A DNA stretch of 64,000 nucleotides from Eubacteriales bacterium. Its GTDB lineage: Bacteria > Bacillota > Clostridia > Oscillospirales > CAG-272. The stretch covers positions 78,780 through 142,779 of the forward strand of contig JAZKXO010000097.1 of NCBI GenBank assembly GCA_045611685.1, in the 5' to 3' direction. Within the stretch, counting starts at the first letter, position 1. Every line of letters starts with the position of its first letter. The position numbers were made by a program, and so were the translations under genes. Of this stretch, positions 1,210 to 42,967 are shown in pieces. Below the pieces are notes generated by a model that saw only the letters and a list, made by a program, of their open reading frames with translations, had not been told where the DNA came from and did no database searches.

Positions 1210-4200
1210 TTATTCTACGTTAATCATTGCATAGACCATCATCGCGACAAGCGATCTGGGCGCGTATGCTTTCGGCAGAAGCTCATTGTTCTCGCCGGTG
1301 TAGATATTCTTCATGTTCATCCACGCCATTGCCTCAAATGCCCACTCAGACACATCCGCTATGTCACTGTGCGGCATCCGGTACATCCATGCGCCTGTGA
1401 AACCGGCATTCTTGCTCTGCACATAGCGGTACAGAACGGTGCAAAGCTGCTCACAGGTCAGTGTATCCTCAGGAGCGAACTTTGTATCGCTGTAGCCGTT
1501 GACGAGACCAGTGGATGCGGCCCAACGAACTGCCTCCGTATACCACTCATCGGTGGGAACGTCCCTAAACTGCATTGCATAATTCACAACGGGACAGCCA
1601 TTCATTCTCCAAAGAATCGTGACGAGCATAGCGCGGGACAACTCGGTGGCGGGGCTGAACAAACCAAGTTCTGCATCCACACCGTTCATGATTCCGTTTT
1701 TATAGAGATACAGAACCGCAGCGTAATACGTGTCGGTTTCCGCTACGTCCGTGTAGGGATTGATCTGCTTGAAAACAGCGGAAATCGTGTGATCCTTTCT
1801 GACGTTTTGGAACGTGTATTCGCTGACCACACCGATGCTTTTTCCGTCAACAAGCACATCTGCAATTTGATATCCCTCACAGGGGGTGATGGTGTAGGTC
1901 TGATTTTTGCTGTACTTCACTTGGGTGATACCCTCTGGACTGATTACGCCTCCCTCGGTGGCGGTAGCAGTAATATCAAATTCCTGATTGTAGAGCATCA
2001 TCAGTACCCAAAACCAATAGTCGTTGCTTTCCGACTCAGCTTTTTTCCACATGGCGGTAAATGTAACATTCTCCCAAACCGTATAGGGGAATTCTACAAT
2101 ATCCGTGCCGTTAGTTGTCCATCCAAGGAAGATATACCCTTCACGTGTCGGCTGGGAAGGCTCTGCAACGGTGTCCCCACAAAAAACAGCTCCGGTGATT
2201 ATATTCTCTCCGTTAGTCGGATCAAATTTCGCGGTAAATGCCTGTGTGCGTGAAATCGTATATGTACCGCCTGCGGTTACGCTGAACGCGATTTGCCCGT
2301 TTGAGTACACCGCAATTTGCGTTGTACCATCAGGATTGGTGACCATCGCTCCCGCAAAACCGTTCGGCAGAATCAAGCGAGGCTGCTTCGTGAGGAAAAC
2401 ACTGCTGTCAGCCACAGTAACCGTGAGGAGTTCTCCTGCTTCATCGGCATAATCGACAATGAGTTTTGCATTGAAATCGGCCGACGGAGAAGTGCTGCGC
2501 CGGAGACGGAACGTACTCATAACATTCGTCTGATCTTCAAAAAGCCACGTGCCGATGGTGTTTTCATCGTCATCCACGACGCATATTTCTTTCACACCCG
2601 ACTCATTGAATGCGGAACTGTCGATAATCAGATCATCGGCTTCTTTGTTGATAATCTGCGTGTCGGTTTCCCAATCCACGACCAAGATGTTCTCATACTC
2701 TTCCCTGGCAGTGAGACGCATCCGCAGAACGGCAGGTGTACTTGTCTGGCCGAGTATGCCGGACTCAAGCGAGCTATCGCCGCTCCACCATCCTTTCACG
2801 GGGAATTTCCAGTGCGGATTGGTGATCACGCGTGCACCCGTTTTGTTCGTATCCACTTGGGCCGGGCGACGCTTCAGAAGATTTCCCACGCTCGCCTCGG
2901 TAGTTGCCGCAAGCATCTCAGCGAGGCCGAGGTTTTCGCAGTCGTTGTACTTGTCTGCATGAGGAAGGCCGGGCATAGGAATGTGACCGTTGCCTCGTTC
3001 GCAGAATTGTGCAAAATAATTCTGATACTGATACAACGTACCCTCGGTGTATACGTCAAAATCCGTTCCGTTATTGATAAAGTTGCTGTCGGTAACACGG
3101 AAGTAATAGGGGCTGAATCCCGAAATTAGCTGCACAGCGGTTTCGTTGTTGATAAAGGTATTGTTGTTCAACATGCCTTCGTTCATAGCTGAACTGCCAT
3201 TGACACGGACAGCAACATCGTTATTGATAAAGACAGAATGACTCGGCAGGATCACCCCGCCGTTCTGTGTCCAGTCAATCGCCACATCGTAACCGTAAAA
3301 CACGCATTGTCTGACGTTTGCGTAATCGCCGCTTATTGCAACGCTTTCCCCGTTTTCGGTTTCTTCGGGCGCAATAAAAAACACATTTTCAATTTCGACA
3401 TGGGCTCCACCATTCACAACGCCGGGAGCTCCGATGATCATATTGCCAACGATGCGTGTATTGCTACTGCCTCGAAGAACGACGGGAGTTAAAGACAATT
3501 CCCGGAATTTATCGGGGATCTGTACTGTTCCCGAATAATCTATATCAGCAAGTTGAACATATGTAACCTGCCGTGTTTGAGCCATTGGGTCGGGAATGAT
3601 GGCCGTGGAATCCTTGTCGAGCTCTTCTCCCAGTTCAACCAAAAACGCATTCAGTTCCTCCGTGGTATCGACACCCAACTGTGCGCAATCGTAGATTTTT
3701 TCCTCGGAACCTATGCAGAAGCAGATCGCGCTGCCGATATCGCCTGTGACTGTTTGACCATTCATGGTCATACTGACAGTCGCCCAAAGCTTCACCACGG
3801 ATCTTTCTCCACTTTTGAAGTACAGTTCCCAGTCGTTGATTGCAGAAGGAGTGATTTCTGTAATATGTTTTTTGTTGTTCAGGCTGAACGCTTCGGGACC
3901 GTAAAAATGTTCAATCCAAACCTTGGATACCTTTACCTTGGCACGGTTGTTCGTTACGGGATCGTAATATTTACGCCCGATTTCATCGTATTTGATTTCG
4001 GCGACGGAAATGTCAATATCCCCGAACAGCTGATAGGAATCGGAGGTGTCACGTGAGGAATCGCCCATTCTCATCGTCGTTTTTTCGTGTACCGTCATAA
4101 TGCCAGTTACGTCGCTTGTCGTGGAAAAGCCGACTACATAATTTCCGATATACAAGCCATTTGCTTCATACTTATTAAAGCCGGTATTGACATCAAATTG

Positions 4201-4644
4201 TCCCAGCGTGGTGCTGCCGTCCTTGATGATCAGTGTGTACGTCATATTGATCTGCTTTGGCTTCGGAAGCGCGATTTTCATATCGTACCGGTCTTCCGTT
4301 TCCGGCCGCACCACCCAAACAGGCACGATCGGATCGTGAGTAACACCCCATTCTTCGACTTCTGCGGTAAAGGTATTCTTTTGCGCTTCGGTAAAGCCTT
4401 CCTCGCACATGATCCAAACGGTTCCGTTCTCCAACTGATAGTAGTTGTTCTTCAGATCATAGAAGTTTTTGTTTGTCATCTTTGTGCTTTCGTCTCTCAT
4501 CTGAGAGGAATACATAGCAATCTCGATACTCGGTCCACTCGGTCCGCTTGGTGCAGGTGCCGCACCAGCTGTCAGAGCAAATACAGGGAGCATCGTGAAT
4601 ACCATCACAATGCTGAGAACCAAGCTCCAAAATCTTTTGTTCAT
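1210..4644 (-). CDS. Large SLH-anchored cell-surface protein: signal peptide, parallel beta-helix-like region, Listeria-Bacteroides-type repeat, InlB-B-repeat-like module and 3 C-terminal SLH domains
   Basis: ORF 1210..4824 trimmed to ATG 4644 (MNKRFWSLVLSIVMVFTMLPVFALTAGA signal peptide, GGAG upstream). Beta-helix-like repeats NNDVAVRVNG / NNTFINNETAV / SNFINNGTDF. EGYIFLGWTTNG repeat. SLH motifs YTDVAETDTYY, FRDVPTDEWY, HSDIADVSEWA at the C-terminus. Confidence 0.85.
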   Translation of the reverse strand: MNKRFWSLVLSIVMVFTMLPVFALTAGAAPAPSGPSGPSIEIAMYSSQMRDESTKMTNKNFYDLKNNYYQLENGTVWIMCEEGFTEAQKNTFTAEVEEWGVTHDPIVPVWVVRPETEDRYDMKIALPKPKQINMTYTLIIKDGSTTLGQFDVNTGFNKYEANGLYIGNYVVGFSTTSDVTGIMTVHEKTTMRMGDSSRDTSDSYQLFGDIDISVAEIKYDEIGRKYYDPVTNNRAKVKVSKVWIEHFYGPEAFSLNNKKHITEITPSAINDWELYFKSGERSVVKLWATVSMTMNGQTVTGDIGSAICFCIGSEEKIYDCAQLGVDTTEELNAFLVELGEELDKDSTAIIPDPMAQTRQVTYVQLADIDYSGTVQIPDKFRELSLTPVVLRGSSNTRIVGNMIIGAPGVVNGGAHVEIENVFFIAPEETENGESVAISGDYANVRQCVFYGYDVAIDWTQNGGVILPSHSVFINNDVAVRVNGSSAMNEGMLNNNTFINNETAVQLISGFSPYYFRVTDSNFINNGTDFDVYTEGTLYQYQNYFAQFCERGNGHIPMPGLPHADKYNDCENLGLAEMLAATTEASVGNLLKRRPAQVDTNKTGARVITNPHWKFPVKGWWSGDSSLESGILGQTSTPAVLRMRLTAREEYENILVVDWETDTQIINKEADDLIIDSSAFNESGVKEICVVDDDENTIGTWLFEDQTNVMSTFRLRRSTSPSADFNAKLIVDYADEAGELLTVTVADSSVFLTKQPRLILPNGFAGAMVTNPDGTTQIAVYSNGQIAFSVTAGGTYTISRTQAFTAKFDPTNGENIITGAVFCGDTVAEPSQPTREGYIFLGWTTNGTDIVEFPYTVWENVTFTAMWKKAESESNDYWFWVLMMLYNQEFDITATATEGGVISPEGITQVKYSKNQTYTITPCEGYQIADVLVDGKSIGVVSEYTFQNVRKDHTISAVFKQINPYTDVAETDTYYAAVLYLYKNGIMNGVDAELGLFSPATELSRAMLVTILWRMNGCPVVNYAMQFRDVPTDEWYTEAVRWAASTGLVNGYSDTKFAPEDTLTCEQLCTVLYRYVQSKNAGFTGAWMYRMPHSDIADVSEWAFEAMAWMNMKNIYTGENNELLPKAYAPRSLVAMMVYAMINVE

Positions 4645-4913
4645 TTGAATATCACTCCTGTTGTTTGATTCCGTATTTGTATTACCTTCGTTGAAACAGT
4701 TAAAAAGTGCGCCCACCGAAGCGAGCACACAAAAACGCAAACTCCGATAGTCGCCAAACAAAAAACAAATTGATAGGATACTCTCCAAACCAACCCGCGG
4801 AATTTGCACTTTTACCAAATTCATAAGGTCAGTTTGAAAATAGAGACAAAGCCCCCTATAAAACTAGAGAGTTTCTCCTAAAATTTGTATTTGTTTTTTT
4901 GTTTGGCATAATT

Positions 4914-6375: not shown

Positions 6376-7866
6376 ATGATCGAGATCGGAAGCAGACGGG
6401 AATGTTTTTTTGACAACTATCTCATTGATGAAGAAAAAACAACCGCCGAAAAACGGCTTCATAAGCCGATCCGCCGTCGGGTGCTCCATTCTTTCAACCA
6501 GCCCTTCGAGGACAACCTCACCACGTTTGTAACCGTCATTTGGGCAGAGGGCAAATACCGTATGTATTACGTTACGTCCAAAAACTATATCTGCTACGGC
6601 GAGAGCGACGATGCACACAACTGGACGTTCCCGAAGATGGGCATCGTTTCTATGGACGGCTCGACCGATAACAACATAATCTTGACTATGGAAATGCTCA
6701 AAGAGCAGTACCAATTCCGTGCGTTTGACAATATGTCCGTCTTCTACGATGAAAATCCCGCCTGCCCGCCGGACGAACGCTACAAGATGACCTGCATGTG
6801 GCTCGGCCACGAGGCGCTCCTGCTTCTTCTCAGCGCGGACGGCATCCACTTCAACAAGAGCCGTCTCATCACGGAGGAAGGCGAGTTCGATTCCCAAAAC
6901 CGTATGTTCTGGAGCAAAGCGCACGGAAAATATTTCTGCTACTTCCGCGGAGAGCATGAGCCTCAGCCTGGCACCGACCGAATGGATTTCTCGTATATGA
7001 ATAAGGACGCCCGACGCCTTTACGATCCGGATCGCCGCCTGCTGCGCGAACCCGGAGACGGAACGTTCACATTCAAGAGAGACATCTGCGTCGCCGAATC
7101 CGAGGATGCCGTTCACTGGTCTCACACCGAGCACATCCGTTTTAACGGCGCCGATTTCCAGATGTACAATAACTGCGTCTTCCCCTACCCCCGCGCGCCT
7201 CATATGCTGATCGCATTCCCCCTCCGCTATGCAGAGCGCAAGGCGTGGACAAAAAACTACGACGAACTGTGCGGTAAAGAGGATCGTCTTGCACGGATGA
7301 ACGTAATGGCGCGTCTCGGCCTTGCCGTAACGGACGGATTATTTATGTCCAGCCGCAACGGCTACGACTTCGTGAAATTCGATGAGGCGTTTATCGCACC
7401 GCCGCCGGAAAATCCAGAGTCCTTCGTATACGGCGACGGAACGGCCGTACCCACACTCATCGAAGTACCCTCCGAAATCCCGGGCGCGGATAACGAGTAT
7501 ATGATTCTCGTGCGCGAAAGCTACCGCACCGCCGTGGATCATAACAAGCTGGTAAAATACACGATCCGTATGGATGGATTTGTTTCCTTGCACGCGGGCG
7601 GAGATCCGTGCACGGCAGTAACCAAGCCGTTCTCCTACACGGGCGAAGATCTGTATGCGAATATTGCCACCTCTGCACGCGGCGGCGCATTCTTCACCTT
7701 GAAGGCAGGCGATGAGGAATACACCTCCGTTGAAATTTTCGGCAATGCAGTAGATAAACGGATTCGCTTTGAAGATGACAAGGCCGTAAAACGCCTCTCA
7801 GGCAAAGAGGTTACTCTCACCGTTCATATGTTCGACTGCGATCTGTACGCGATCCGTTTCCGGTAA
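6376..7866 (+). CDS. Uncharacterised 496-aa cytoplasmic protein, possibly a beta-propeller glycoside-hydrolase-like protein. The function is not recognised.
   Basis: ATG 6376 is preceded by AAGGAGA. Long clean ORF with balanced composition, no signal peptide, and a terminator hairpin directly downstream. Only weak resemblance to GH32/43-like propeller plus beta-sandwich proteins. The neighbour is a carbohydrate esterase. Confidence 0.6.
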   Translation: MIEIGSRRECFFDNYLIDEEKTTAEKRLHKPIRRRVLHSFNQPFEDNLTTFVTVIWAEGKYRMYYVTSKNYICYGESDDAHNWTFPKMGIVSMDGSTDNNIILTMEMLKEQYQFRAFDNMSVFYDENPACPPDERYKMTCMWLGHEALLLLLSADGIHFNKSRLITEEGEFDSQNRMFWSKAHGKYFCYFRGEHEPQPGTDRMDFSYMNKDARRLYDPDRRLLREPGDGTFTFKRDICVAESEDAVHWSHTEHIRFNGADFQMYNNCVFPYPRAPHMLIAFPLRYAERKAWTKNYDELCGKEDRLARMNVMARLGLAVTDGLFMSSRNGYDFVKFDEAFIAPPPENPESFVYGDGTAVPTLIEVPSEIPGADNEYMILVRESYRTAVDHNKLVKYTIRMDGFVSLHAGGDPCTAVTKPFSYTGEDLYANIATSARGGAFFTLKAGDEEYTSVEIFGNAVDKRIRFEDDKAVKRLSGKEVTLTVHMFDCDLYAIRFR

Positions 7867-7979: not shown

Positions 7980-8747
7980 ATGAGACTCGAAAACAAAGTT
8001 GCCGTAGTAACCGGTGCATCCAGCGGTGTTGGCCGTGAGATCGCGCTTCTTTTCGCGAAGGAAGGAGCAAAGGTCGTAGCCGTTGCAAGAAGAGCCGAAA
8101 GACTTGCCGCTCTCGAGGAGCAGAGCAAGGAGCTCGCAGGTGAGATCGTAGCATACGCCGGCGACATTTCCCTTGAGGAAACGAACGACGCGATGATCGA
8201 CTTCGCGATCGAAAAGTTCGGCAAGTTCGATATCCTTATCAACAATGCAGGTCTTATGGATAACTTCGCACCCGCCGAGAACCTCGACACCGAGCTTCTT
8301 ATGCGTCTTATGCAGGTAGACGTTTACGGTCCCGCCTGGGCTACCCGCAAGGCTGTAAGAGTATTTATGGAAAACGAAAACGGCGGTAACATCGTAAACG
8401 TTGCTTCCATCGCAGGCATCTGCGGCGGCAAGAGCGGCTGCGCGTACACGATGGCAAAGCACGCAGTGATCGGCCTTACCAAAAACACCGCGTTCTCTTA
8501 CCGTCTTAACAAGATCCGCTGCAACGCGATCTGCCCCGCAGGCATCAACACGGAGATGACCGATCCGGCTCTCTTTGCTACCGCTGACCAGAAGGGCCTG
8601 CAGAACGCGATGCTCTCCATGCACTTCGGCACAAGAAGCGCCGAAGCATTCGAAATCGCAGATATCGCGCTCTTCCTTGCAAGCGATGCAGCTGCCGTTG
8701 TAAACGGCGCCATCGTTACTGCAGACAGCGGTCTTATCTCGTTCTAA
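7980..8747 (+). CDS. Short-chain dehydrogenase/reductase (SDR) family oxidoreductase
   Basis: ATG 7980 after GGAGGAG. TGASSGVG Rossmann motif, NNAG, and the YxxxK catalytic motif (YTMAKHAV). Confidence 0.85.
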   Translation: MRLENKVAVVTGASSGVGREIALLFAKEGAKVVAVARRAERLAALEEQSKELAGEIVAYAGDISLEETNDAMIDFAIEKFGKFDILINNAGLMDNFAPAENLDTELLMRLMQVDVYGPAWATRKAVRVFMENENGGNIVNVASIAGICGGKSGCAYTMAKHAVIGLTKNTAFSYRLNKIRCNAICPAGINTEMTDPALFATADQKGLQNAMLSMHFGTRSAEAFEIADIALFLASDAAAVVNGAIVTADSGLISF

Positions 8748-10588: not shown

Positions 10589-12088
10589 TTACTGCGGAGC
10601 CTGATCCTTTACGACTACGTCGTGGGCGCCGCCCTCAACGATCGAGACGGCACTGACGAGCGTCAGGCGTGCTTTCTGCTGGAGCTCGGGAATGGTGAGC
10701 GCGCCGCAGTTGCACATCGTGGAGCGGATCTTTGCAAGCGTAGTCATAAGGTTGTCGTGGAGCGAGCCTGCGTACGGCACGTAGCAATCAACGCCTTCCA
10801 CGAAGGACAGTTTGGATGCGCCGCCCATGTCGTAGCGCTGCCAGTTGCGCGCACGGGCGCTTCCCTCTCCCCAGTACTCTTTCATGTAGTTGCCCTTGAT
10901 CATAACCTTATTGGTCGGGCTTTCATCAAAGCGGGAGAAGTAACGGCCGAGCATGCAGAAGTCTGCACCCATGGCGAGCGCGAGCGTCATATGGTAATCG
11001 TGCACGATACCGCCGTCGGAACAGATCGGGATGTATACGCCGGTCTCTTCAAAATACTCGTCGCGGGCCTTTGCCACCTCGATCACGGCGGTAGCCTGTC
11101 CGCGGCCGATACCCTTCGTCTCACGGGTGATACAGATGGAGCCGCCGCCGATACCGACCTTGATGAAGTCGGCACCTGCCTCAGCGAGGAAGCGGAAGCC
11201 TTCGCGGTCAACGACGTTGCCGGCGCCTACTTTTACGCTGTCGCCGTACTTTTCACGGATGAACGCGATCGTTCTGGACTGCCATTCGGTAAATCCTTCG
11301 CTCGAGTCGATACAGAGAACGTCCGCGCCTGCCTCTACGAGTGCAGGAACGCGCTCCTCGTAGTCGCGGGTATTGATACCGGCGCCGACGACGTAACGCT
11401 TCTGTTTATCAAGCATTTCGTGCGGGTTCTCCTTATGCTGATCGTAGTCCTTGCGGAACACGAAAGCGACAAGGTGCTGTTTTTCATCAATGATGGGCAA
11501 AGAGTTCAGTTTATGGTCCCAGATGATGTTGTTAGCTTCCTTCAGAGACGTGCCCTCGGGAGCTGTAATGAGCTTCTCAAAGGGAGTCATAAACGTCTCC
11601 ACTTTCTCATCCATGGACATACGGCTGACGCGGTAATCGCGGGAGGTTACGATGCCGAGAAGCTTGCCCGTTGCGGTACCGTCATCAGTTACGGCAATAG
11701 TGGAGTGCCCGAGACGATTCTTCAGTTCAATAACGTCGGCAAGCGTCTGATCGGGACGGATATTGGAATCGGAGCTAACAAAACCGGCCTTGTAATTCTT
11801 TACACGGCGCACCATATCTGCCTCGTCAGCGATGGACTGCGAGCCGTAGATAAACGAAACGCCGCCCTCACGCGCGAGTGCGATAGCCATACGGTCGTCG
11901 GACACGGCCTGCATGATCGCGGACACGAGCGGGATCGTCATAGAAAGAGAGGGCTCCTCTCCGCGGCGGTATTTTACAAGCGGTGTTTTCAGAGATACAT
12001 TGGCAGGAATACAATTTGCATCGGAATATCCGGGCACCAAAAGATATTCACTGAACGTATGGGACGCTTCACTGTAATAAAAAGCCAT
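10589..12088 (-). CDS. guaB: IMP dehydrogenase
   Basis: 499 aa. Catalytic loop [12 protein letters not shown], a CBS-pair insert, and the C-terminal EGGAHDV motif. GAAGGAG RBS. Confidence 0.85.
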
Positions 12089-12128
12089 GTTGTTGCTCCT
12101 TCATTTTATATAATTATACTTGTATAAG

Positions 12129-15138: not shown

Positions 15139-15967
15139 GTCCGCCTTATGCGCGGCGGGCATCCCGAAAGAGGACGCTGCCTTTGAGGCGAGACTCCTCG
15201 CCGCCCACTGCACCGGCATCTCCCCCGCCCGCCTTCTGACGATGCGCGATGAGGAGCTCTCCTCGCCGTCTCTCGAGGATGCGACAGCACGCCGATGCAA
15301 ACGCGAGCCGCTTCAGTATATTTTGGGCGAGTGGGAGTTCATGGGGCTCACCTTTGCCGTCTCCCCCGACTGTCTCATCCCGCGCGCCGATACGGAAACG
15401 CTGGTTGAGGCGGCTTTGCCGCACATCCCCGAAAACGCACGCGTGGCGGATCTCTGCACGGGCAGCGGTGCGATCGGCATCGCTCTCGCACATTTCCGCC
15501 CCGATATTCACGTTACGGCGGTAGAACTCTTCCCCGAAACGGCACGGATGGCAGATAAAAACAGCCGCCGACTCGGCGTTTCCGAGCGGTTTACCATTCT
15601 TCTCGGCGACGTTACGAAAAAGATATTCCAAGGCGGGACTTCATTTGACATGATTGTGTCGAACCCGCCGTATATTGCATTGAATGAAATGGAGGGTCTT
15701 GAGCCCGAGCTCTCCTTTGAGCCGCGCGCGGCACTTACCGATGAAGGCGACGGGCTGTCCGTTATCCGCGGCGTTCTCCGAACTGCCGCTGAAACACTGA
15801 CGGCGGACGGACTTCTTTTTATGGAGATCGGCGCCTCGCAGGGAGAGCGCGTTCTCTCCCTTGCCGCCGACTTCGGATTCTCCGGCAAAATTCTCCCCGA
15901 CACGGAGGGACGCGACCGCGTCCTTTTCGCACACCGATATTCTTACAAAAGTGAGGCAAATCTATGA
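15119..15967 (+). CDS. prmC: Peptide chain release factor N5-glutamine methyltransferase
   Basis: PLQYILGEWEF, DLCTGSGAIG SAM motif, VSNPPYI catalytic motif. Confidence 0.9.
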   Translation: MTLRTIESALCAAGIPKEDAAFEARLLAAHCTGISPARLLTMRDEELSSPSLEDATARRCKREPLQYILGEWEFMGLTFAVSPDCLIPRADTETLVEAALPHIPENARVADLCTGSGAIGIALAHFRPDIHVTAVELFPETARMADKNSRRLGVSERFTILLGDVTKKIFQGGTSFDMIVSNPPYIALNEMEGLEPELSFEPRAALTDEGDGLSVIRGVLRTAAETLTADGLLFMEIGASQGERVLSLAADFGFSGKILPDTEGRDRVLFAHRYSYKSEANL

Positions 15968-17022
15968 GTAACAAGATCACGCTTTGCGTCCTCTTCGGAG
16001 GACACTCCTCGGAGTACGAGGTTTCCCTTACTTCTGCGTATTCCGTCCTCACCAACGCCAATACCGCACGTTACGATATTCTGCCCGTAGGCATCACGAG
16101 AGAAGGTGCCTGGCACCTCTTCACCGGCGACTACGAAAAAATTCGCGACGGCAGCTGGTGCGACACCGCCTCCCTTCTGCCGAGTGTGACGGTGGATCTC
16201 ACACCTGGCTCGCAGTCGCTCCTCATTACAAAGCCGGACGGCACGTGTGAGAAACAAAAGGTTGACGTCGTGTTCCCCGTGCTCCACGGCGCGTACGGCG
16301 AGGATGGCACGGTGCAGGGTATGCTTTCCCTCGCGGGCATTCCGTTCGTGGGCTGCGGATGCGCTTCGTCCGTCGTATGTATGGACAAATCGCTCACCAA
16401 GCTCCCTGTAAATCAGGCGGGCATCAAGCAGGCATCGTTTATTCTCGTCCGCAAATCGGACGACAAAGCCGCCATTATCGAAAAGGCCGAAAAGGCAATT
16501 GCCTATCCCATGTTCGTAAAGCCCGCGCGAGCAGGCTCATCCGTCGGCATATCGAAGGCGAAGGATCAAAACGGCCTTCGCGCCGCGCTCGAAAAAGCGT
16601 TCCGCGAGGACGAGAAGGTACTTATTGAGGAAACGATTGTCGGTCGCGAGATCGAGGTCGCGGTCCTTGACGAAAAAGGCACGTACACCGTCTCCGACTG
16701 CGCCGAGATCGACGCGGGCGCAGAATTCTACGATTACGACGCGAAGTACGTTTCCGACTGCTCCTCGTTCTACATCCCCGCACGTCTGTCGAAAGAGACG
16801 CGCGACGAAGTCCGCCGACAGGCCGAGATCATCTTCAAGGCACTCGACTGCCGCACGCTTTCCCGCGTGGATTTCTTCGTGAAGGAAGACGGTGAAATCC
16901 TCTTCAACGAGATCAACACGATCCCCGGATTCACCCCCATCAGTATGTATCCGAAACTGATGATGGATGCAGGACTGACGTACCCGGAGCTGATCGACCG
17001 CCTCATCGACGCCTCTCTCTGA
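15964..17022 (+). CDS. ddl: D-alanine--D-alanine ligase
   Basis: LFGGHSSEYEVSL, HGAYGEDGTVQG, ATP-grasp motifs, EINTIPGFT. ATGA overlap with prmC. Confidence 0.92.
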   Translation: MSNKITLCVLFGGHSSEYEVSLTSAYSVLTNANTARYDILPVGITREGAWHLFTGDYEKIRDGSWCDTASLLPSVTVDLTPGSQSLLITKPDGTCEKQKVDVVFPVLHGAYGEDGTVQGMLSLAGIPFVGCGCASSVVCMDKSLTKLPVNQAGIKQASFILVRKSDDKAAIIEKAEKAIAYPMFVKPARAGSSVGISKAKDQNGLRAALEKAFREDEKVLIEETIVGREIEVAVLDEKGTYTVSDCAEIDAGAEFYDYDAKYVSDCSSFYIPARLSKETRDEVRRQAEIIFKALDCRTLSRVDFFVKEDGEILFNEINTIPGFTPISMYPKLMMDAGLTYPELIDRLIDASL

Positions 17023-17040
17023 ACGGTCACATAATTTAAG

Positions 17041-17072
17041 ATACGCCGCACCCAAAGGTACGGCGTATTTTC
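17041..17072 (+). terminator. Rho-independent terminator of ddl
   Basis: ATACGCCG..CGGCGTAT bulged stem followed by TTTTC. Confidence 0.65.
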
Positions 17073-17155
17073 ATTCTATAGGCGCAAGCGCGCATATCTA
17101 TGCAACTGTATGCAAATATTTGCAGAAAGATGCATGCTCTTTTGCATATGGACAT

Positions 17156-17271
17156 TACGCGTTCGCCGAAACCGCATTTTTACGCGCTCGCCGTTCACGG
17201 TTTTTCGATGCTTTTTTGTGCACCCTGCACAATTTCACATTTTGCGTTCGCCGTGCTTGCTGTTTTTGCGA
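17156..17271. repeat. Three iteron-like direct repeats (GCGyTCGCCG - 7-9 nt - TTTTT)
   Basis: TACGCGTTCGCCGaaaccgcaTTTTT (17156), TACGCGCTCGCCGttcacggTTTTT (17181), TTTGCGTTCGCCGtgcttgctgTTTTT (17241). Confidence 0.6.
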
Positions 17272-17283
17272 AAAACGAAAAAG

Positions 17284-17379
17284 TTTTCCACAGGTTGTTG
17301 GAAACCCTGTGGAAACTCCAATGATTTGGGGCAAAAATCAGAGTTTTCCACAGGGAAAACTATCCAAAACTGTGGAAAA
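17284..17379. promoter_or_regulatory. DnaA-box cluster: four 9-mers matching TTWTCCACA-type boxes as two inverted pairs, plus one degenerate box
   Basis: TTTTCCACA 17284-17292 (+), GTTTCCACA 17308-17316 (-), TTTTCCACA 17344-17352 (+), TTTTCCACA 17371-17379 (-). Degenerate CTATCCAAA at 17360-17368. Confidence 0.6.
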
Positions 17380-17433
17380 CTCCGCGATCGCGAAAAGTTT
17401 GCCTTCGTCGGCAACCGTCTTAAAATAGAAAAT

Positions 17434-17454
17434 GATGTTTTTTCAAAAAACATC
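17434..17454. repeat. Perfect AT-rich palindrome GATGTTTTTT-c-AAAAAACATC next to the DnaA-box cluster
   Basis: 10-bp arms with a 1-nt spacer, read directly from the sequence. Confidence 0.8.
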
Positions 17455-17616
17455 TTGACAAGAAATTCTGCTGATTACTTATGCATTTTTGTCAAAAACC
17501 GATTTTCCCGACGGGAAATGCCGAAAAGAAAAAAAGCGGCACGAATCATACCCGAACGGCCCCGGCGTGGTCAGCCGCCCGCATGGTAAACTCATGCCTG
17601 CTAAGTTAGTATATGC

Positions 17617-17650
17617 AAAAAATGCGCCGTTATACACAGCGCATTTTTGG
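17617..17650 (-). terminator. Rho-independent terminator of the dac gene
   Basis: AAATGCGC ... GCGCATTT hairpin with flanking A/T runs, immediately after the dac stop codon. Confidence 0.7.
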
Positions 17651-17653
17651 GTT

Positions 17654-18964
17654 TCAGAAAAAGTTGCGGCGGCGCATTTTCTCCTCACGCCGATGCGCCT
17701 GAATCAAAATGTACGCACCGCTGAAAAGAATGAGAAAGACGATAAGTGCACGGAAGAACCGTCCCGAGGTAAACGCTGTGATCTTCGAGAGGAAGTAGAG
17801 GAACTCACTGCGCGTCACGGAGACGGTAGCGATAAGATCCGTCGTGCCAAGTATCTCGCCGTTATACGTAACGGTAACCGTTCCGCAGATCTGCCCGGCC
17901 TCGACCGGTGCCACGAGGGATTCATCAAACGTATTGTAGCTGAGGTTGAATCCGTTGGGATCAAGATCGCGCGGCAGATACCGGACGATCGACTCAGCGG
18001 GCACGAGGGTTACGTAATCGACGGTAGAGGAAAGTGAAACGCTCATCTCACATACACGTTGGGATACCCCCAGCACCTCCGCGTATCCGTAAGAATCAAA
18101 TGCCCAATCGAGCATATTTTCTACATTTGCATAACTGTAAATATCCTCCTCCGTGCTCTCCGCGTTCATTACGATTGCGAGGTAGGAGAGATTGTCCCTG
18201 GAGGCTACGGAAACAAGGCAATATCCGCTTTGCACCGTGTATCCGGCGTTCATGCCGACGGCATCGGGATAGTAGTATCGGGTATCGTAGAATTTAGACA
18301 ACTGACTATTTCTGTTGAACAGATTGCGGTAGTCCTTTTTGTTCGTCTCGTCCATGACGTACTTGGTAAGTGACGTGATCTCGGTGAATCCGGGGAGACC
18401 GTAGGCATATTTCGCGATCGCCGCCGTATCGGAGACGGTCGTTACCATGCGATCGTCGTGCATGCCCGTAGGGTTGGTGTAGTACGTATTGTACGCGCCG
18501 AGCAGTTGCGCCTTTTCATTCATCATAGAGACGAACTTCTCCACAGACCCACCAACGGTAACGGCAATCACCTGCGCGGCATCGTTCGCCCCGTTGACGA
18601 GGAGCGCGTGAAGCATATCGTTCACCGTAACCTCTTCCCCGACGACAAGGCCTATATTGTTGCCGACGACCTTATAAAGCATCTCAGAGGTAACCGTGAT
18701 CTTTCTCGAGGGATCGCCGCCGAGTGCCTCGACGGCGAGAATACCGGTCATCAGTTTTACGGTGGATGCGGGATACACTTTTGCGTCTTCGTTGTACGTA
18801 TAGAGCACCGCATCGTTTTCTATGTTATAGAGATATGCGCCGCCCGCGTGCTCTACGAGGGGCGGCACGGCCGCTTTTGTCGGCACGGTGAACAAAAAGG
18901 AAAGAAAAGAAAGTGCCGTTGCCACAAGCGTCGCCGCTGAAAAACGGACAAGCAATCTTTTCAT
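17654..18964 (-). CDS. PBP5/DacB-like D-alanyl-D-alanine carboxypeptidase homologue. SxxK is present, but the SxN and KTG motifs are degenerate.
   Basis: Signal/TM N-terminus, ASTVKLMTG (SxxK), and peptidase S11 architecture with a C-terminal TM. Where SGNDAA is expected the sequence reads GANDAA, and where KTG is expected it reads NAG. Confidence 0.75.
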   Translation of the reverse strand: MKRLLVRFSAATLVATALSFLSFLFTVPTKAAVPPLVEHAGGAYLYNIENDAVLYTYNEDAKVYPASTVKLMTGILAVEALGGDPSRKITVTSEMLYKVVGNNIGLVVGEEVTVNDMLHALLVNGANDAAQVIAVTVGGSVEKFVSMMNEKAQLLGAYNTYYTNPTGMHDDRMVTTVSDTAAIAKYAYGLPGFTEITSLTKYVMDETNKKDYRNLFNRNSQLSKFYDTRYYYPDAVGMNAGYTVQSGYCLVSVASRDNLSYLAIVMNAESTEEDIYSYANVENMLDWAFDSYGYAEVLGVSQRVCEMSVSLSSTVDYVTLVPAESIVRYLPRDLDPNGFNLSYNTFDESLVAPVEAGQICGTVTVTYNGEILGTTDLIATVSVTRSEFLYFLSKITAFTSGRFFRALIVFLILFSGAYILIQAHRREEKMRRRNFF

Positions 18965-39014: not shown

Positions 39015-42000
39015 TCAGGGAATAAGATATTTCACGGGAGCATAGATACCCGAGCTGGTTTCCAGCATAATCCAAAGCGTACTGAACGCGTTCGAGGTAG
39101 GTGCGGGAATCACTGTTGCCTGCCCTGCCGTTACGTTCACGGTGCCTTTGTTTCCGTAAGCGTAGGCGCTGGAATAGCCACCGTTGAAGGTCAGAGCGGT
39201 ATATTCCGTGGTAGCGTTGGTATAGAAATACTTAACCGTACCGGTAACGCCCGGGAAAATGTACACACTGCTGTTCGGTCCGGGCAGAGGACTGCTCGTA
39301 AAGCCGGTAGCAGCAGATGAGCCGGAACTCGACGATCCGCCGGATACGGGAACGAAGATGACGTCCGTCTTATACGTACCGGTGTCAATCCAGATAGCAA
39401 CGTTCTTGAGGGACATCGCCATCGAACCGAGGCCGGGGATGGTGATGCTGCCCTGACCGAGCCTCATCGACAGATCAAGCGATCTGAGACCTGTCGTCGT
39501 GATCTCGTCCGTACCGGACAGGTACGCCATCATCCACGACTGGGAAGAATCACTCATCATTTCCGTCAGTTCTGCGTAATTCTCCGCATCGGTAAAGCAG
39601 TAATACAGTCTACCGAGAACACTCGGCTGGTAGAACAGTACGCCGTTTAAGATGTACGGTTCGCCGACAAAACCGCTGATACCGCCGGAACCGCCGATGG
39701 TAGCTCCGGTCGTAGAGAGAAGCAAGGGAGCATAGTACATGTTATCCGTGTCGCGGAAAATAAGCACCATGTAACTGTACCCTGCAGAATTGAGCGTTGC
39801 CGTCTTAGCGCCGCCGGATGAGACCGTAATAGAGCCGGAGCCAAGACCGGAACCTGCGCCTGCGGAAATATATGCGCGGAAGAACTCCTCAGAGTTCGCA
39901 GGTACGCTTGCTGTATTCGTATAGTACCAAAGGATGCTGCCCGCGCCGAGTGCATTGTAGGAAAGCATGGTAGCCGATCCGGTCGTCTGTGCGGTGGGCA
40001 TCGTGGAGAAGCCGTAGGTAGAAGCACTACCAACTCCGCCAGCGCCCGTACTGGTGGAAAGGACTACGGGCTTATAGAAGATGCCGTCGTCATCCTCAAG
40101 CATCACGACTACATACTTGGGCACGTACAGATCAAGATATATCTCGATATCTCTGTTGGTTTTGGCAGTTACAAACTTATAGCCTGCATACGTGGTGTAC
40201 TGTGCTTCCGTCTGCACCAGATTTTTGAGCGTTTCCTCATCGGGGAGCTGCTCCTCATCCGTGAAGTAATACCAAACGGTACCGCTTACGGAAGCCGTCA
40301 GAGAGATCTTCGCCTTTCTGTCAGACTGCGTATATACGGGATTCTTGGTGAATCCGACCGTGTTATGTACGGTGGGTGCTTCCTGTGCGCCGATGAGCGA
40401 GATTACGATCGGCTGCATGGGCGTTGCCACAGGGGTCATAAAGGAAGTACCTGTGGTCTCCAGCATAAGAACGAGGTAGGCGCACTCTAGGCCCATCTGA
40501 TTGGTAAGCGAGGTAGTGATGATCTGTCTGCCGGCGCCAACAGCGGCAGTACCGCCGATCGGCGTAGACAGAGAGGACTTCGTAGCGTTCTCATAGTTCG
40601 CCTTGAAGGACGTAGCATCCGGCACAGAATTATTATCGGTAATGTAGTAATACAGTTTGCCGGCAGCAGTGGGCTCTACGTTAATCTGGAAGAAGCCGGA
40701 GTTCATCGCGGTGGACGGAAGAACGGAGAATCCGCTCGGGGAGAGGCTGACGGCAGAGGGCGCCGCAAGCGTCACCACTACAGGACAGTATTCCGTACCG
40801 TTCACGGAGGTGAGGCGAAGAACGAGGTACGGATAGCTCTTGGCCGCAACCTGATCGGACAGCGCCGAAGCGTACGCAGTATCCTTACCTATGTCAAACA
40901 AGCCGGTAATCGATCTGGTAAGAGATTCGGATTTAGCGATATTCTCGAGATTTTTGGTAAACTGTTCTGCCGTAGGAACGGTCGCAGCGGTGCTGTAATA
41001 ATACTCAATAGTACCGTGTTCGCCGGCGGTCAGCTTCAGTATGTACTTATCCGCCTCGAGGGCAACCGTCGGAGCTACGGTGAAGCCGGATTCGGTAATC
41101 ACCGGAGCACCGGTTCTGGAAATAACGATCGGCTGATACGGGTTACCGGTTGCATCCTTCAGTTGAAGGACAATGTATTCGTATGCAGATACCGCCGACT
41201 TCGCGAAGGTATTCTCACCGACTACCTTGTTGGCAGTAACGGGAATCATACCCTTATGCGTGTTGGACGTGGCGGAGTAGTTCGTTGCAAATGCCGTGGA
41301 CGTCGGAACCGTCGCCGTATTGGTATAGTAGTAAGAAACGAGACCCGTTACATTGGTCGTGAAGTTCAGCTTCTCATACGAGCCGCTCGCAGAAACGATC
41401 GGCGTTGCGGCAAAGCCGTTTGACGCCTTATTGGCGATCACCTTAGGCTGATACTTGACACCGTTTGAACTCTGCAGCATAACGACTACGTATGCGTATG
41501 CGGACACCTCAGAGGAGTCTGCAATCTTTTGATCTACCGTCGTATTGGCGGTAACGCCGATATACGCCTTCTTGCCTGCAGCAACGTAGGCGGTGTTGTA
41601 GGTTTCCTTCGTGGGGACAGTCTCGGAGTTGGTGAAGTAGTAATACAGTATACCGGTTGCGGTAGGCTTTGCGGTCAGATGACAGCCTGCCGTATACGCG
41701 TAGGTGGTAGGCTCAGCGGAGAAGCCGGTCTCCCCTGCGGCAGCAGCGCTGGTGTACGGATTGCCCGCAAACATAGCCGTGATACCGGTTGCAATCGTGT
41801 AAGAGGTGGGAACTACCGCAGATTCAAATCCCGTTGCCTTAACGTTAGCGGCAGTCAGCGTGCCCGCACCGCCGAACGAAGAATTCTTCGCGGTGCTTTC
41901 GAGCGTCATCGCCTTAACGGAGGTACGCTGTACGGTCGTCATTTCGACCGGTGTTTTTGCCGTTACTGCTTCTACGGACGTTCCGCTGATAAGAGAAACG

Positions 42001-42869
42001 GACGCGGTATGTGCGATATTCGAATCCACAATGATCTGGTCTACGGTACATCCGGAAAGGATGACGGAGGTCGTTCCGCGCAGAACGAGCGTGTCCACAT
42101 CACAGCCGCTGAGCGTAACAGTGCCGCTCGATGCACCCTCGGTGATGAGGAGTTTTCCTTTGATCGTTGCATTGGAAACCGTGATACCGGAAACACCGAT
42201 TACGGCGTTTTCATCGTTAGCGTCAGCCTCGGTGCCGGTTGCGGATGTCTTGTAGATCGTACCTGCGGCACGGTAAAGGATAGCAGCCGCTTCAGAGCGC
42301 TTCAAAAGACCGTCGGGACGGAAGTTGCCGGTATCAGCATCTCCCTTAAAAAGGCCGATATAGCTGACCTGCAAAACGTAGTCGCGGAACTCGGAACGAA
42401 TAGAAGTATAGTCGGGATATGTAGTCTGAGAAACCTTCTCGTTCTCACCGAGATTCATATAGCGTGCCAAAAGCGCGGCGGCTTCCTGGCGGGTGAGATT
42501 CTCATTCGGAGCAAAATAGGAGCCGTAGCCGAGGAGGAATCCCTGCGCGGCAGCTTTTCTGACGTAAGGATAGAACCAGTCAGTCGCAGCAACGTCGGAA
42601 TAATTGACATCAGCCTCGGCGGTGAGACCAAACGTCTCCACCATCATTTTAACAAACTGGGAACGGGTAACCGGCACTTCGGGACGGAAGGAGCCGTCTT
42701 CGGCGTAGCCGTTCAGAATTTTCTTTCCAACCATGTAGTTGATTTCTTCTTTTGCCCATGCGGAAGATGCGGGCCAGTTCGCCTCGTCGGTGAACGCCGC
42801 AAAGACGCTCATCGGAAGACACGAAACAAGAAGCACAAGAGAAAGGAGTAAGGCGGTTGCTCTTTTCAT
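39015..42869 (-). CDS. SLH-anchored cell-surface protein: N-terminal SLH triplet, beta-helix-like linker and eight tandem ~100-aa repeats of an unrecognised module
   Basis: ATG 42869 (GGAGA, 8 nt). Signal peptide MKRATALLLSLVLLVSCLPMSVFA. SLH motifs (FTDEANWP.., YSDVAATDWF.., YPDYTSIRSEF..). The repeats share GF...P......G.LYYY.T....VP....F...Y. Confidence 0.85.
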   Translation of the reverse strand: MKRATALLLSLVLLVSCLPMSVFAAFTDEANWPASSAWAKEEINYMVGKKILNGYAEDGSFRPEVPVTRSQFVKMMVETFGLTAEADVNYSDVAATDWFYPYVRKAAAQGFLLGYGSYFAPNENLTRQEAAALLARYMNLGENEKVSQTTYPDYTSIRSEFRDYVLQVSYIGLFKGDADTGNFRPDGLLKRSEAAAILYRAAGTIYKTSATGTEADANDENAVIGVSGITVSNATIKGKLLITEGASSGTVTLSGCDVDTLVLRGTTSVILSGCTVDQIIVDSNIAHTASVSLISGTSVEAVTAKTPVEMTTVQRTSVKAMTLESTAKNSSFGGAGTLTAANVKATGFESAVVPTSYTIATGITAMFAGNPYTSAAAAGETGFSAEPTTYAYTAGCHLTAKPTATGILYYYFTNSETVPTKETYNTAYVAAGKKAYIGVTANTTVDQKIADSSEVSAYAYVVVMLQSSNGVKYQPKVIANKASNGFAATPIVSASGSYEKLNFTTNVTGLVSYYYTNTATVPTSTAFATNYSATSNTHKGMIPVTANKVVGENTFAKSAVSAYEYIVLQLKDATGNPYQPIVISRTGAPVITESGFTVAPTVALEADKYILKLTAGEHGTIEYYYSTAATVPTAEQFTKNLENIAKSESLTRSITGLFDIGKDTAYASALSDQVAAKSYPYLVLRLTSVNGTEYCPVVVTLAAPSAVSLSPSGFSVLPSTAMNSGFFQINVEPTAAGKLYYYITDNNSVPDATSFKANYENATKSSLSTPIGGTAAVGAGRQIITTSLTNQMGLECAYLVLMLETTGTSFMTPVATPMQPIVISLIGAQEAPTVHNTVGFTKNPVYTQSDRKAKISLTASVSGTVWYYFTDEEQLPDEETLKNLVQTEAQYTTYAGYKFVTAKTNRDIEIYLDLYVPKYVVVMLEDDDGIFYKPVVLSTSTGAGGVGSASTYGFSTMPTAQTTGSATMLSYNALGAGSILWYYTNTASVPANSEEFFRAYISAGAGSGLGSGSITVSSGGAKTATLNSAGYSYMVLIFRDTDNMYYAPLLLSTTGATIGGSGGISGFVGEPYILNGVLFYQPSVLGRLYYCFTDAENYAELTEMMSDSSQSWMMAYLSGTDEITTTGLRSLDLSMRLGQGSITIPGLGSMAMSLKNVAIWIDTGTYKTDVIFVPVSGGSSSSGSSAATGFTSSPLPGPNSSVYIFPGVTGTVKYFYTNATTEYTALTFNGGYSSAYAYGNKGTVNVTAGQATVIPAPTSNAFSTLWIMLETSSGIYAPVKYLIP

Positions 42870-42967
42870 TTCTTTATTCTCCGTTTCAAAAAATTTCATC
42901 ATTTTATGTTCGCAATTTTTATTCGCGGCGCCCTTGTTTTAGACACACGCAAAATTATCCTCTTTAT

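Follow-up and report, generated by a model that had tools for sequence, protein, structure and literature searches.

Outside the replication origin oriC, the chromosome of Bacillus subtilis carries six DnaA-box clusters (DBCs) which bind DnaA and jointly restrain initiation (PMC3245932; PMC5295017). In Escherichia coli the DnaA-reactivating sequences (DARS) are built on a core of three DnaA boxes, with box I opposite to boxes II and III (PMC6868365), and the datA locus works by IHF-dependent ATP hydrolysis on DnaA. Here we describe an array of DnaA boxes situated in the 631-bp gap between the convergent genes ddl and dac, within a 64-kb stretch of DNA (hereafter the window, to whose coordinates all positions refer) whose Ddl protein leads to an uncultured Oscillospirales/Eubacteriales clade, the nearest species-level genomes having Ddl proteins 74-77% identical. 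The conserved design of the array comprises five sites, arranged as A> <B <C, a 27-bp spacer and D> <E (Table 1).

The array and the B. subtilis DBCs are alike in being clusters of consensus boxes that lie between the genes of a Firmicute chromosome, at a distance from both dnaA and oriC, and in being conserved cis elements. They share, however, neither sequence homology nor a common locus. Furthermore, it sits between convergent 3' ends rather than upstream of a protein gene as the DBCs do, some of which adjoin DnaA-regulated promoters, and it differs from them in its strict five-site geometry and in the AT-rich block coupled to it. The likeness to DARS lies in the orientation pattern: box A (+) opposes boxes B (-) and C (-), and the sites follow one another every 12 bp in each lineage compared. 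The gaps between boxes are 3 bp in the array as against 5 bp between DARS boxes I and II, and DARS2 adds binding regions for accessory proteins where the array has an AT-rich block at a fixed distance. According to reviews, the B. subtilis model does without IHF (PMC13220808) and without the datA system, and we know of no DARS in this species; a DARS-like role of the array would therefore be new. The likeness to datA consists in being non-coding, in about five high-affinity DnaA boxes and in acting on the DnaA pool rather than starting replication, as the array would; there is no sequence similarity between the two, and according to a review datA lacks a B. subtilis counterpart. Firmicute origins show the same succession of a box cluster, a GC-rich stretch and a conserved AT-rich block but, unlike them, the array lacks a skew switch, DnaA-trios and a neighbouring dnaA or dnaN, and its flanking genes converge. 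Finally, the Spo0A boxes found at the B. subtilis oriC (PMC5295017) are a related motif (TGTCGAA as compared with TGTGNATAA), so that the same DNA could be read by both proteins, although the array sites carry G or T, not C, at the position that discriminates Spo0A boxes.

A conserved array of DnaA boxes at the ddl/dac junction

Perfect matches to the DnaA-box consensus TTWTCCACA number four in the 64 kb, compared with 0.74 expected from shuffled sequences, and three of these four lie inside the 96-bp array. This enrichment was matched by none of 100 shuffles, and simple arithmetic from the shuffle expectation gives a chance of ~1e-5 of finding at least three perfect boxes in any 96-bp window of 64 kb. 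Only one perfect box occurs elsewhere, and when one mismatch is allowed the array is still the sole tight cluster of the window; both scans thus agree with a preliminary description of this DNA, which had noticed no comparable cluster elsewhere in the 64 kb. The next best grouping, consisting of three one-mismatch boxes in 140 bp (8236-8374) inside a short-chain dehydrogenase gene, is probably due to chance in an AT-richer stretch.

Re-reading of the sequence and the motif scan returned the four boxes of the preliminary description at the same positions and on the same strands. Its account of two inverted pairs stands in so far as each pair is an inverted repeat, but the design has five sites and the pairs nest: the arms are perfect inverted repeats of 10-13 bp (13 bp in the second pair), and A matches E and C matches D, so that one nested palindrome spans the entire region. 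A degenerate element that had also been counted in, CTATCCAAA (17360-17368), drops out of the array, its sequence not being conserved in relatives.

Ten lineages were compared, namely the window, L001-L004, L122, L123, L124, L128 and L131, which were found through Ddl homologues and the contigs carrying them; a look-up of the window's own Ddl gave no exact match. Their Ddl proteins are 63-79% identical to that of the window and all ten share the gene order prsA-like / DUF1385-prmC-ddl > gap < dac-ribF. The box cluster is present at the ddl/dac junction in every one of them (10/10), which answers the check for conservation at this junction in relatives that the preliminary description had proposed. 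In the ten-lineage alignment the boxes have column identities of 0.87-0.93 and the spacers of 0.53-0.60, and the core of box C, TGTGGAAA, is invariant in all ten. The steps A-B and B-C measure 12 bp in all lineages; the distances of the array, each taken only in those lineages where it was measurable, are constant in nearly all of them, with 59-61 bp from A to D and 87-89 bp from A to E, and they hold even though the intervening DNA is not conserved. Read from this alignment, the pattern shows purifying selection on the boxes as sequence motifs in ten lineages, and the selected object is the motif itself, which equals the DnaA consensus.

Two lineages depart from the common design in different ways. 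In L128 the cluster is rearranged: 6 of its roughly 8 sites share one orientation, and the palindromic pairs and their nesting are gone. In L124 (Ddl 65% identical), whose gap is GC-rich as is that of L125, the boxes (6420-6560) have drifted to TTTTCCCCA, TTTTCCTCA, GGGGAAAA and TGAGGAAAA and the AT-rich block is absent; box C, together with the palindrome P1 and the candidate small RNA H1 presented below, persists, leaving a natural half-decayed module. Lineages with Ddl proteins at most 54% identical have no boxes and carry a small open reading frame (ORF) after ddl instead, and L005 (Ddl 65%) has lost both the synteny and the module.

Part of the design recurs in a different Clostridia lineage and at a different locus. 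In L066 (450-545) the canonical box TTATCCACA (+) is followed by a weak middle box and by TGTGGATAA (-) at +24, that is, with the three-site geometry of A-B-C, and two further one-mismatch boxes come behind. This site lies at the start of a pgeF-like (DUF152-type) ORF, about 5.5 kb upstream of ddl, and about 1 Mb of other loci contained no second pair of this kind. A metagenome scan with the most conserved 19-mer, GGCCCCGGCGTGGTCAGCC, gave 41 matches, all of them attributable to chance, and nhmmer found no homology.

Elements flanking the array

On its upstream side the array is accompanied by the palindrome P1, which is clear in 9 of the 10 lineages and weakened in L128, and whose distance to box A is 68-69 bp in the seven lineages where it was measured. 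Judged by its sequence, P1 resembles an operator for a dimeric regulator; compared with a Rex-type site, it is shorter by one base.

On the other side, beyond a GC-rich spacer (59% GC), lies an AT-rich block which is near-identical in seven lineages, recognisable in L128 and L131 and gone in L124. With 74% AT it reaches the 99.8th percentile of the 80-bp windows of the 64 kb. Its position and its interior are both fixed: 47 bp separate the start of box E from the start of the block at the 17-mer GTCTTAAAATAGAAAAT (17417), and 37 bp separate this 17-mer from a TTGACA (17455) located 84 bp from box E and invariant in all nine lineages retaining the block (9/9). The most conserved stretch of the gap is in fact 17417-17620, not the boxes. 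Since boxes and AT-rich block both decay in L124 while P1 and H1 stay, it is suggested that the two make up one functional unit. We also noted within the block an inverted pair, TTGACAA (17455-17461) and TTGTCAA (17489-17495), with perfect or one-mismatch Spo0A-type boxes (TGTCGAA) at its second arm in several lineages (L131, L128). No conserved minus-strand promoter was found inside the block.

H1, a candidate small RNA

The preliminary description had taken the gap to be gene-free and in need of no promoter, a view that does not hold in the face of a conserved minus-strand promoter and a hairpin-RNA gene candidate, H1, which lies in the same gap 150 bp from the boxes. The helix of H1 has 97% of its alignment cells paired and 10 of its 26 pairs changed on both sides in eight lineages, a result equalled by none of 500 shuffles (0/500); an earlier ten-genome fold had given 13 compensatory pairs out of 29. 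The strand can be assigned as minus because the pairs broken on the plus strand are C-A, that is, G-U on the minus strand (39 G-U pairs on the minus strand vs 7 on the plus strand); the folding z-scores are -3.3 for the minus and -1.0 for the plus strand. The apical sequence of 17-19 nt is near-invariant, the one base substituted being in L124. Nine of the ten lineages have a U-tract behind the hairpin, and the exception is again L124.

Directly upstream of H1 the promoter TG(T/C)ATA-17-TATACT is found in 9/10 lineages, always with a 17-nt spacer, and no other sigma-70-like promoter, whichever strand of the gap is considered, is conserved in at least 6 of the 10. The invariant GCATATACT in which it is embedded also resembles the CATA-type -10 elements of sporulation sigma factors, a look which gives a mere lead towards sporulation small RNAs of the CsfG type. 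H1 thus combines the features expected of a small-RNA gene (conserved promoter, covariation-supported helix, intrinsic terminator), and every one of the ten lineages with the box array has it. We considered whether H1 is just the terminator of dac and rejected this, because terminators are characterised neither by a near-invariant apical sequence nor by a conserved promoter immediately upstream. H1 is put forward here as a new, previously undescribed small-RNA candidate, and it appears to be a unit separate from the array, since L124 keeps it while boxes and AT-rich block have decayed.

A covariance model of H1 recovers L131 (E 1e-7) and L124 (5e-4), on neither of which it had been trained, and beyond these two it found only generic terminators in 0.96 Mb. 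Rfam 15, searched at E up to 10 over 16950-17750, returned chance-level matches only, with no family fitting H1, and no target of at least 10 nt for the H1 loop exists within the window.

Replication polarity of the window

GC skew is negative in 27 of the 32 2-kb windows of the stretch, and cumulative GC skew falls monotonically through 17.3 kb with no inflection. Strand bias was separated from codon bias by means of the third codon positions of Pfam-supported genes. Read on the plus strand, third-position skew amounts to about -0.26 in plus-strand genes and about +0.08 in minus-strand genes, which leaves a replication-type offset of about -0.12 to the left of the gap and about -0.08 to its right, of the same sign on both sides. 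The DnaA signatures GKTHL and DHTTV do not occur in any frame of the window; no DnaA or DnaN Pfam domain was found in most window ORFs of at least 100 aa, nor in the gene lists of the relatives, in agreement with the absence of dnaA/dnaN asserted in the preliminary description. The gap holds no tandem TA[AG] array of the DnaA-trio type (consensus of Richardson et al. 2016). On the evidence of the 64-kb window the array is not an active origin or terminus, because there is no change of skew sign, no dnaA and no DnaA-trios and because the genes at either side converge; as they point into the site, forks leaving the array would meet them head-on. The preliminary description had listed a displaced or secondary origin among its options, and as an active origin this option finds no support in any of these features.

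The locus and its neighbourhood

The two genes bordering the gap end where the preliminary description had placed their ends, as borne out by ORFs and domain matches: ddl is the final gene of a DUF1385-prmC-ddl unit on the left and dac the final gene of a ribF-dac unit on the right. The sequence of the ddl terminator is not kept among relatives, and in the two-way terminator hairpin after dac the stems vary between lineages while the loop, TTATACAC, is retained. The ORFs that cross the gap (159, 102, 74 and 72 aa) were rejected as coding, because relatives show 1-nt indels in them and the A-to-D spacing varies over 59-61 bp. Collections of plasmids and phages contain nothing similar to the locus, which therefore does not seem to be carried by a mobile element.

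Just after the ddl terminator, at 17098-17150, ATGCA/TTGCA motifs follow each other at 10-bp steps (CTATGCAACTGTATGCAAATATTTGCAGAAAGATGCATGC), and relatives retain one or two copies of TGCATA(A/G)A. The word TG(C/T)ATAA of this stretch is that of the -35 element of the H1 promoter and recurs at 17478-17485 on the minus strand. Farther off, the low-GC left end of the window (45-50% GC; the region of the ORFs at 12-1157 and 1210-4824) has an ORF matching both Phage_integrase and Resolvase domains next to a 1204-aa surface protein with SLH domains, and is possibly mobile or variable; another SLH protein, 1295 aa long, is encoded at 39015-42902. The 501-aa ORF at 10622-12127 (+) has no Pfam match and is probably the shadow of a gene on the opposite strand, where relatives have guaB (IMPDH). 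Across the 64 kb not one Rfam family attains its gathering score; tRNAs, riboswitches, T-boxes and leaders are all lacking, which few Firmicute regions of such length would lead one to expect.

Table 1. Positions of the array and of the features around it (window coordinates)
Feature	Position	Strand	Description
ddl (D-alanine--D-alanine ligase)	15964..17022	+	ORF; homologues with Dala_Dala_lig domains; synteny common to relatives
ddl intrinsic terminator	17038..17072	+	Inverted repeat: hairpin ATACGCCG.../...CGGCGTAT, then TTTT
Palindrome P1	17216..17232		TTGTGCA-ccc-TGCACAA; identity 0.85 vs 0.53 for the next spacer
Box A	17284..17292	+	TTTTCCACA, perfect; conserved at 0.91
Box B	17296..17304	-	TGTTGGAAA in the window (2 mismatches); TGTGGGAAA (1 mismatch) in most relatives
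Box C	17308..17316	-	GTTTCCACA, 1 mismatch; most conserved box (0.93)
Box D	17344..17352	+	TTTTCCACA, perfect; followed by conserved GGGAAAAC (17353-17360)
Box E	17371..17379	-	TTTTCCACA, perfect
AT-rich block	17417..17500		GTCTTAAAATAGAAAAT (17417-17433), TTGACA (17455-17460), inverted TTGTCAA (17489-17495)
H1, candidate small RNA	17528..17603	-	76-nt extended hairpin, apical GGCUGACCACGCCGGGGCC, ends in U7
H1 promoter	17608..17636	-	TGTATA (17636-17631), 17 nt, TATACT (17613-17608), inside invariant GCATATACT
Two-way terminator hairpin after dac	17618..17648		Inverted repeat; loop holds the -35 element of the H1 promoter
dac (Peptidase_S11 D-Ala-D-Ala carboxypeptidase)	17654..18964	-	Pfam match; synteny

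Discussion

We consider it somewhat probable, with confidence a little better than even, that the array is an extra-origin DnaA-box cluster, i.e. a chromosomal docking site for DnaA of the same kind as the B. subtilis DBCs and, in a looser sense, as E. coli datA and DARS. Occupancy of its boxes by DnaA is predicted from their match to the consensus, and among the options of the preliminary description that of a DnaA-binding or DnaA-titrating locus is the one best supported, by the footprint in ten lineages, the fixed geometry, the boxes kept in L128 and the repetition of the pattern in L066. We infer that DnaA would bind the perfect boxes A, D and E, and that further DnaA would be recruited to the weaker boxes B and C by protein-protein contacts at the 12-bp spacing. 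The resulting DnaA oligomer and the AT-rich block 47 bp away could then form a fixed nucleoprotein complex, which might either keep DnaA from oriC or sense the DnaA level locally; in the latter case the local readout may consist in the control of the promoter-like TTGACA of the AT-rich block or in a roadblock between the convergent transcription units.

Several observations weigh against a docking site of this kind. The DBCs of B. subtilis are mostly oriC-proximal (PMC3245932), and single ones have little effect (PMC3245932; PMC5295017), so that a titration role of the array may be weak. Most of the boxes in L124 read TTTTCCCCA or TTTTCCTCA, which by the usual consensus are poor DnaA boxes. 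The tight coupling of the AT-rich block, with a GC-rich spacer in between, is more origin-like than a simple sink would call for. In addition, A and E (17282-17293 and 17370-17381) covary: L003 and L131 have CAACA for CCACA in either arm, and in four lineages the adjoining tenth base is altered on both sides, a behaviour that would not be expected of independent DnaA sites.

DnaA might, on the other hand, act on the array as the operator of a promoter whose -35 element is the TTGACA at 17455, which is preceded by A/T tracts. The plus-strand RNA made from it would run antisense through H1 to the terminator at 17618-17648, thereby coupling replication status to H1. The invariance of TTGACA in all nine block-bearing lineages, its exact distances from the 17-mer and from box E, and the joint decay of boxes and AT-rich block in L124 are all in favour of such a promoter, as is the precedent of B. 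subtilis, where box clusters allow DnaA to activate sda and to repress dnaA, ywlC and yydA (PMC3245932). However, an acceptable -10 element is missing (TATGCA/TATACA at 18-nt spacing do not end in T, and in L128 there is no candidate at all), no sigma-70-like promoter common to at least 6 lineages emerged on the plus strand from a scan that took conservation into account, and no RNA structure is conserved on that strand, where the H1 helix turns into C-A mismatches. The plus-strand promoter at TTGACA was thus rejected as a candidate, its -10 element not being conserved, and we regard control of a promoter by the array as rather unlikely.

A second alternative, which we hold to be distinctly unlikely, is that the sites bind a regulator other than DnaA, either Spo0A~P or a dimeric protein recognising inverted repeats of 10-13 bp. 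Every box is a one-mismatch Spo0A box (TGTGGAA or TGTTGAA), more TGTCRAA-like motifs occur in the AT-rich block and Spo0A boxes overlap DnaA boxes at the B. subtilis oriC (PMC5295017), but no box of the array has the C at the fourth position which defines a Spo0A box. Conservation further reaches beyond the 9-mer (GAGTTTTCCACAG), the arms of the second pair are perfect 13-mers and arms A and E covary; against this, all nine positions of the DnaA box are conserved, sites occur in tandem as well as inverted, and TTATCCACA of L066 varies between T and A at the third position, as the DnaA consensus does. L128, which keeps the boxes while losing the palindromes, argues against a dimeric palindrome-binding regulator. 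The unrelated palindrome-binding regulator that the preliminary description had offered as its third option is accordingly disfavoured, given an odd number of sites with a tandem pair, a non-palindromic arrangement in L128 and an exact DnaA consensus.

It is tempting to go beyond docking and to see in the array a Clostridial counterpart of the E. coli DnaA-cycle sites of DARS or datA type, or else a conditional origin, which would remodel DnaA or open DNA. The opposed DnaA trio, the second pair, the AT-rich element at a fixed distance and the promoter directed at this element would then form one machine. By analogy with the E. coli sites this may be conceived, but we deem it improbable; to our knowledge, no such DnaA-remodelling element has been described in Firmicutes.

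The inverted boxes might instead act through a nested hairpin (A-E and C-D) in a transcript, in a cruciform or in single-stranded DNA. A folding energy of about -50 kcal/mol was obtained for the 126-nt box region, the z-scores being -6.5 to -7.7 whichever strand is taken. Helix A-E, in which pairing amounts to 97%, has two positions where both partners changed; its covariation score was matched by 0/500 shuffles and gives a hint of pairing as a hairpin or cruciform, or of palindrome arms that evolved in concert. Yet the box "stems" are near-invariant in sequence and their "loops" vary freely, the opposite of what is seen in H1, and this combination speaks for protein sites, not RNA. Moreover, helix C-D has no compensatory change and the helix of box B is 50% paired in the ten-genome alignment; L001 carries the CAACA-type change in E alone, which breaks helix A-E, and L128 dispenses with nesting; no conserved promoter feeds the region except one that ends at the H1 terminator; and a random stem would not fit the DnaA consensus five times. 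We therefore judge a nested hairpin very improbable. The boxes are thus not the transcribed structured RNA by which the preliminary description might have accounted for the repeats; the structured RNA of the gap is the candidate H1.

Least probable of all is a conditional, secondary or relict origin displaced from dnaA, with an AT-rich unwinding element served by transcription from the H1 promoter: a box cluster followed by a spacer of 59% GC and, at a fixed distance, by the conserved block of 74% AT has the build of an origin, the H1 promoter fires toward the block, and guaB and a dac gene lie near oriC in B. subtilis, but GC and third-position skew keep their sign, the flanking genes would be head-on to departing forks, and neither dnaA/dnaN among the scanned window ORFs nor a DnaA-trio array is present.

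Little work has been devoted to the control of initiation except in the Bacillus and E. coli models, and none in the abundant but uncultured Oscillospirales of the gut. A conserved array at a fixed, non-origin position provides a testable handle on how this clade buffers or reads out DnaA. The location of the array and of H1 between two peptidoglycan genes, ddl and dac, further raises the question of whether replication is linked to the cell wall or to development in these bacteria.

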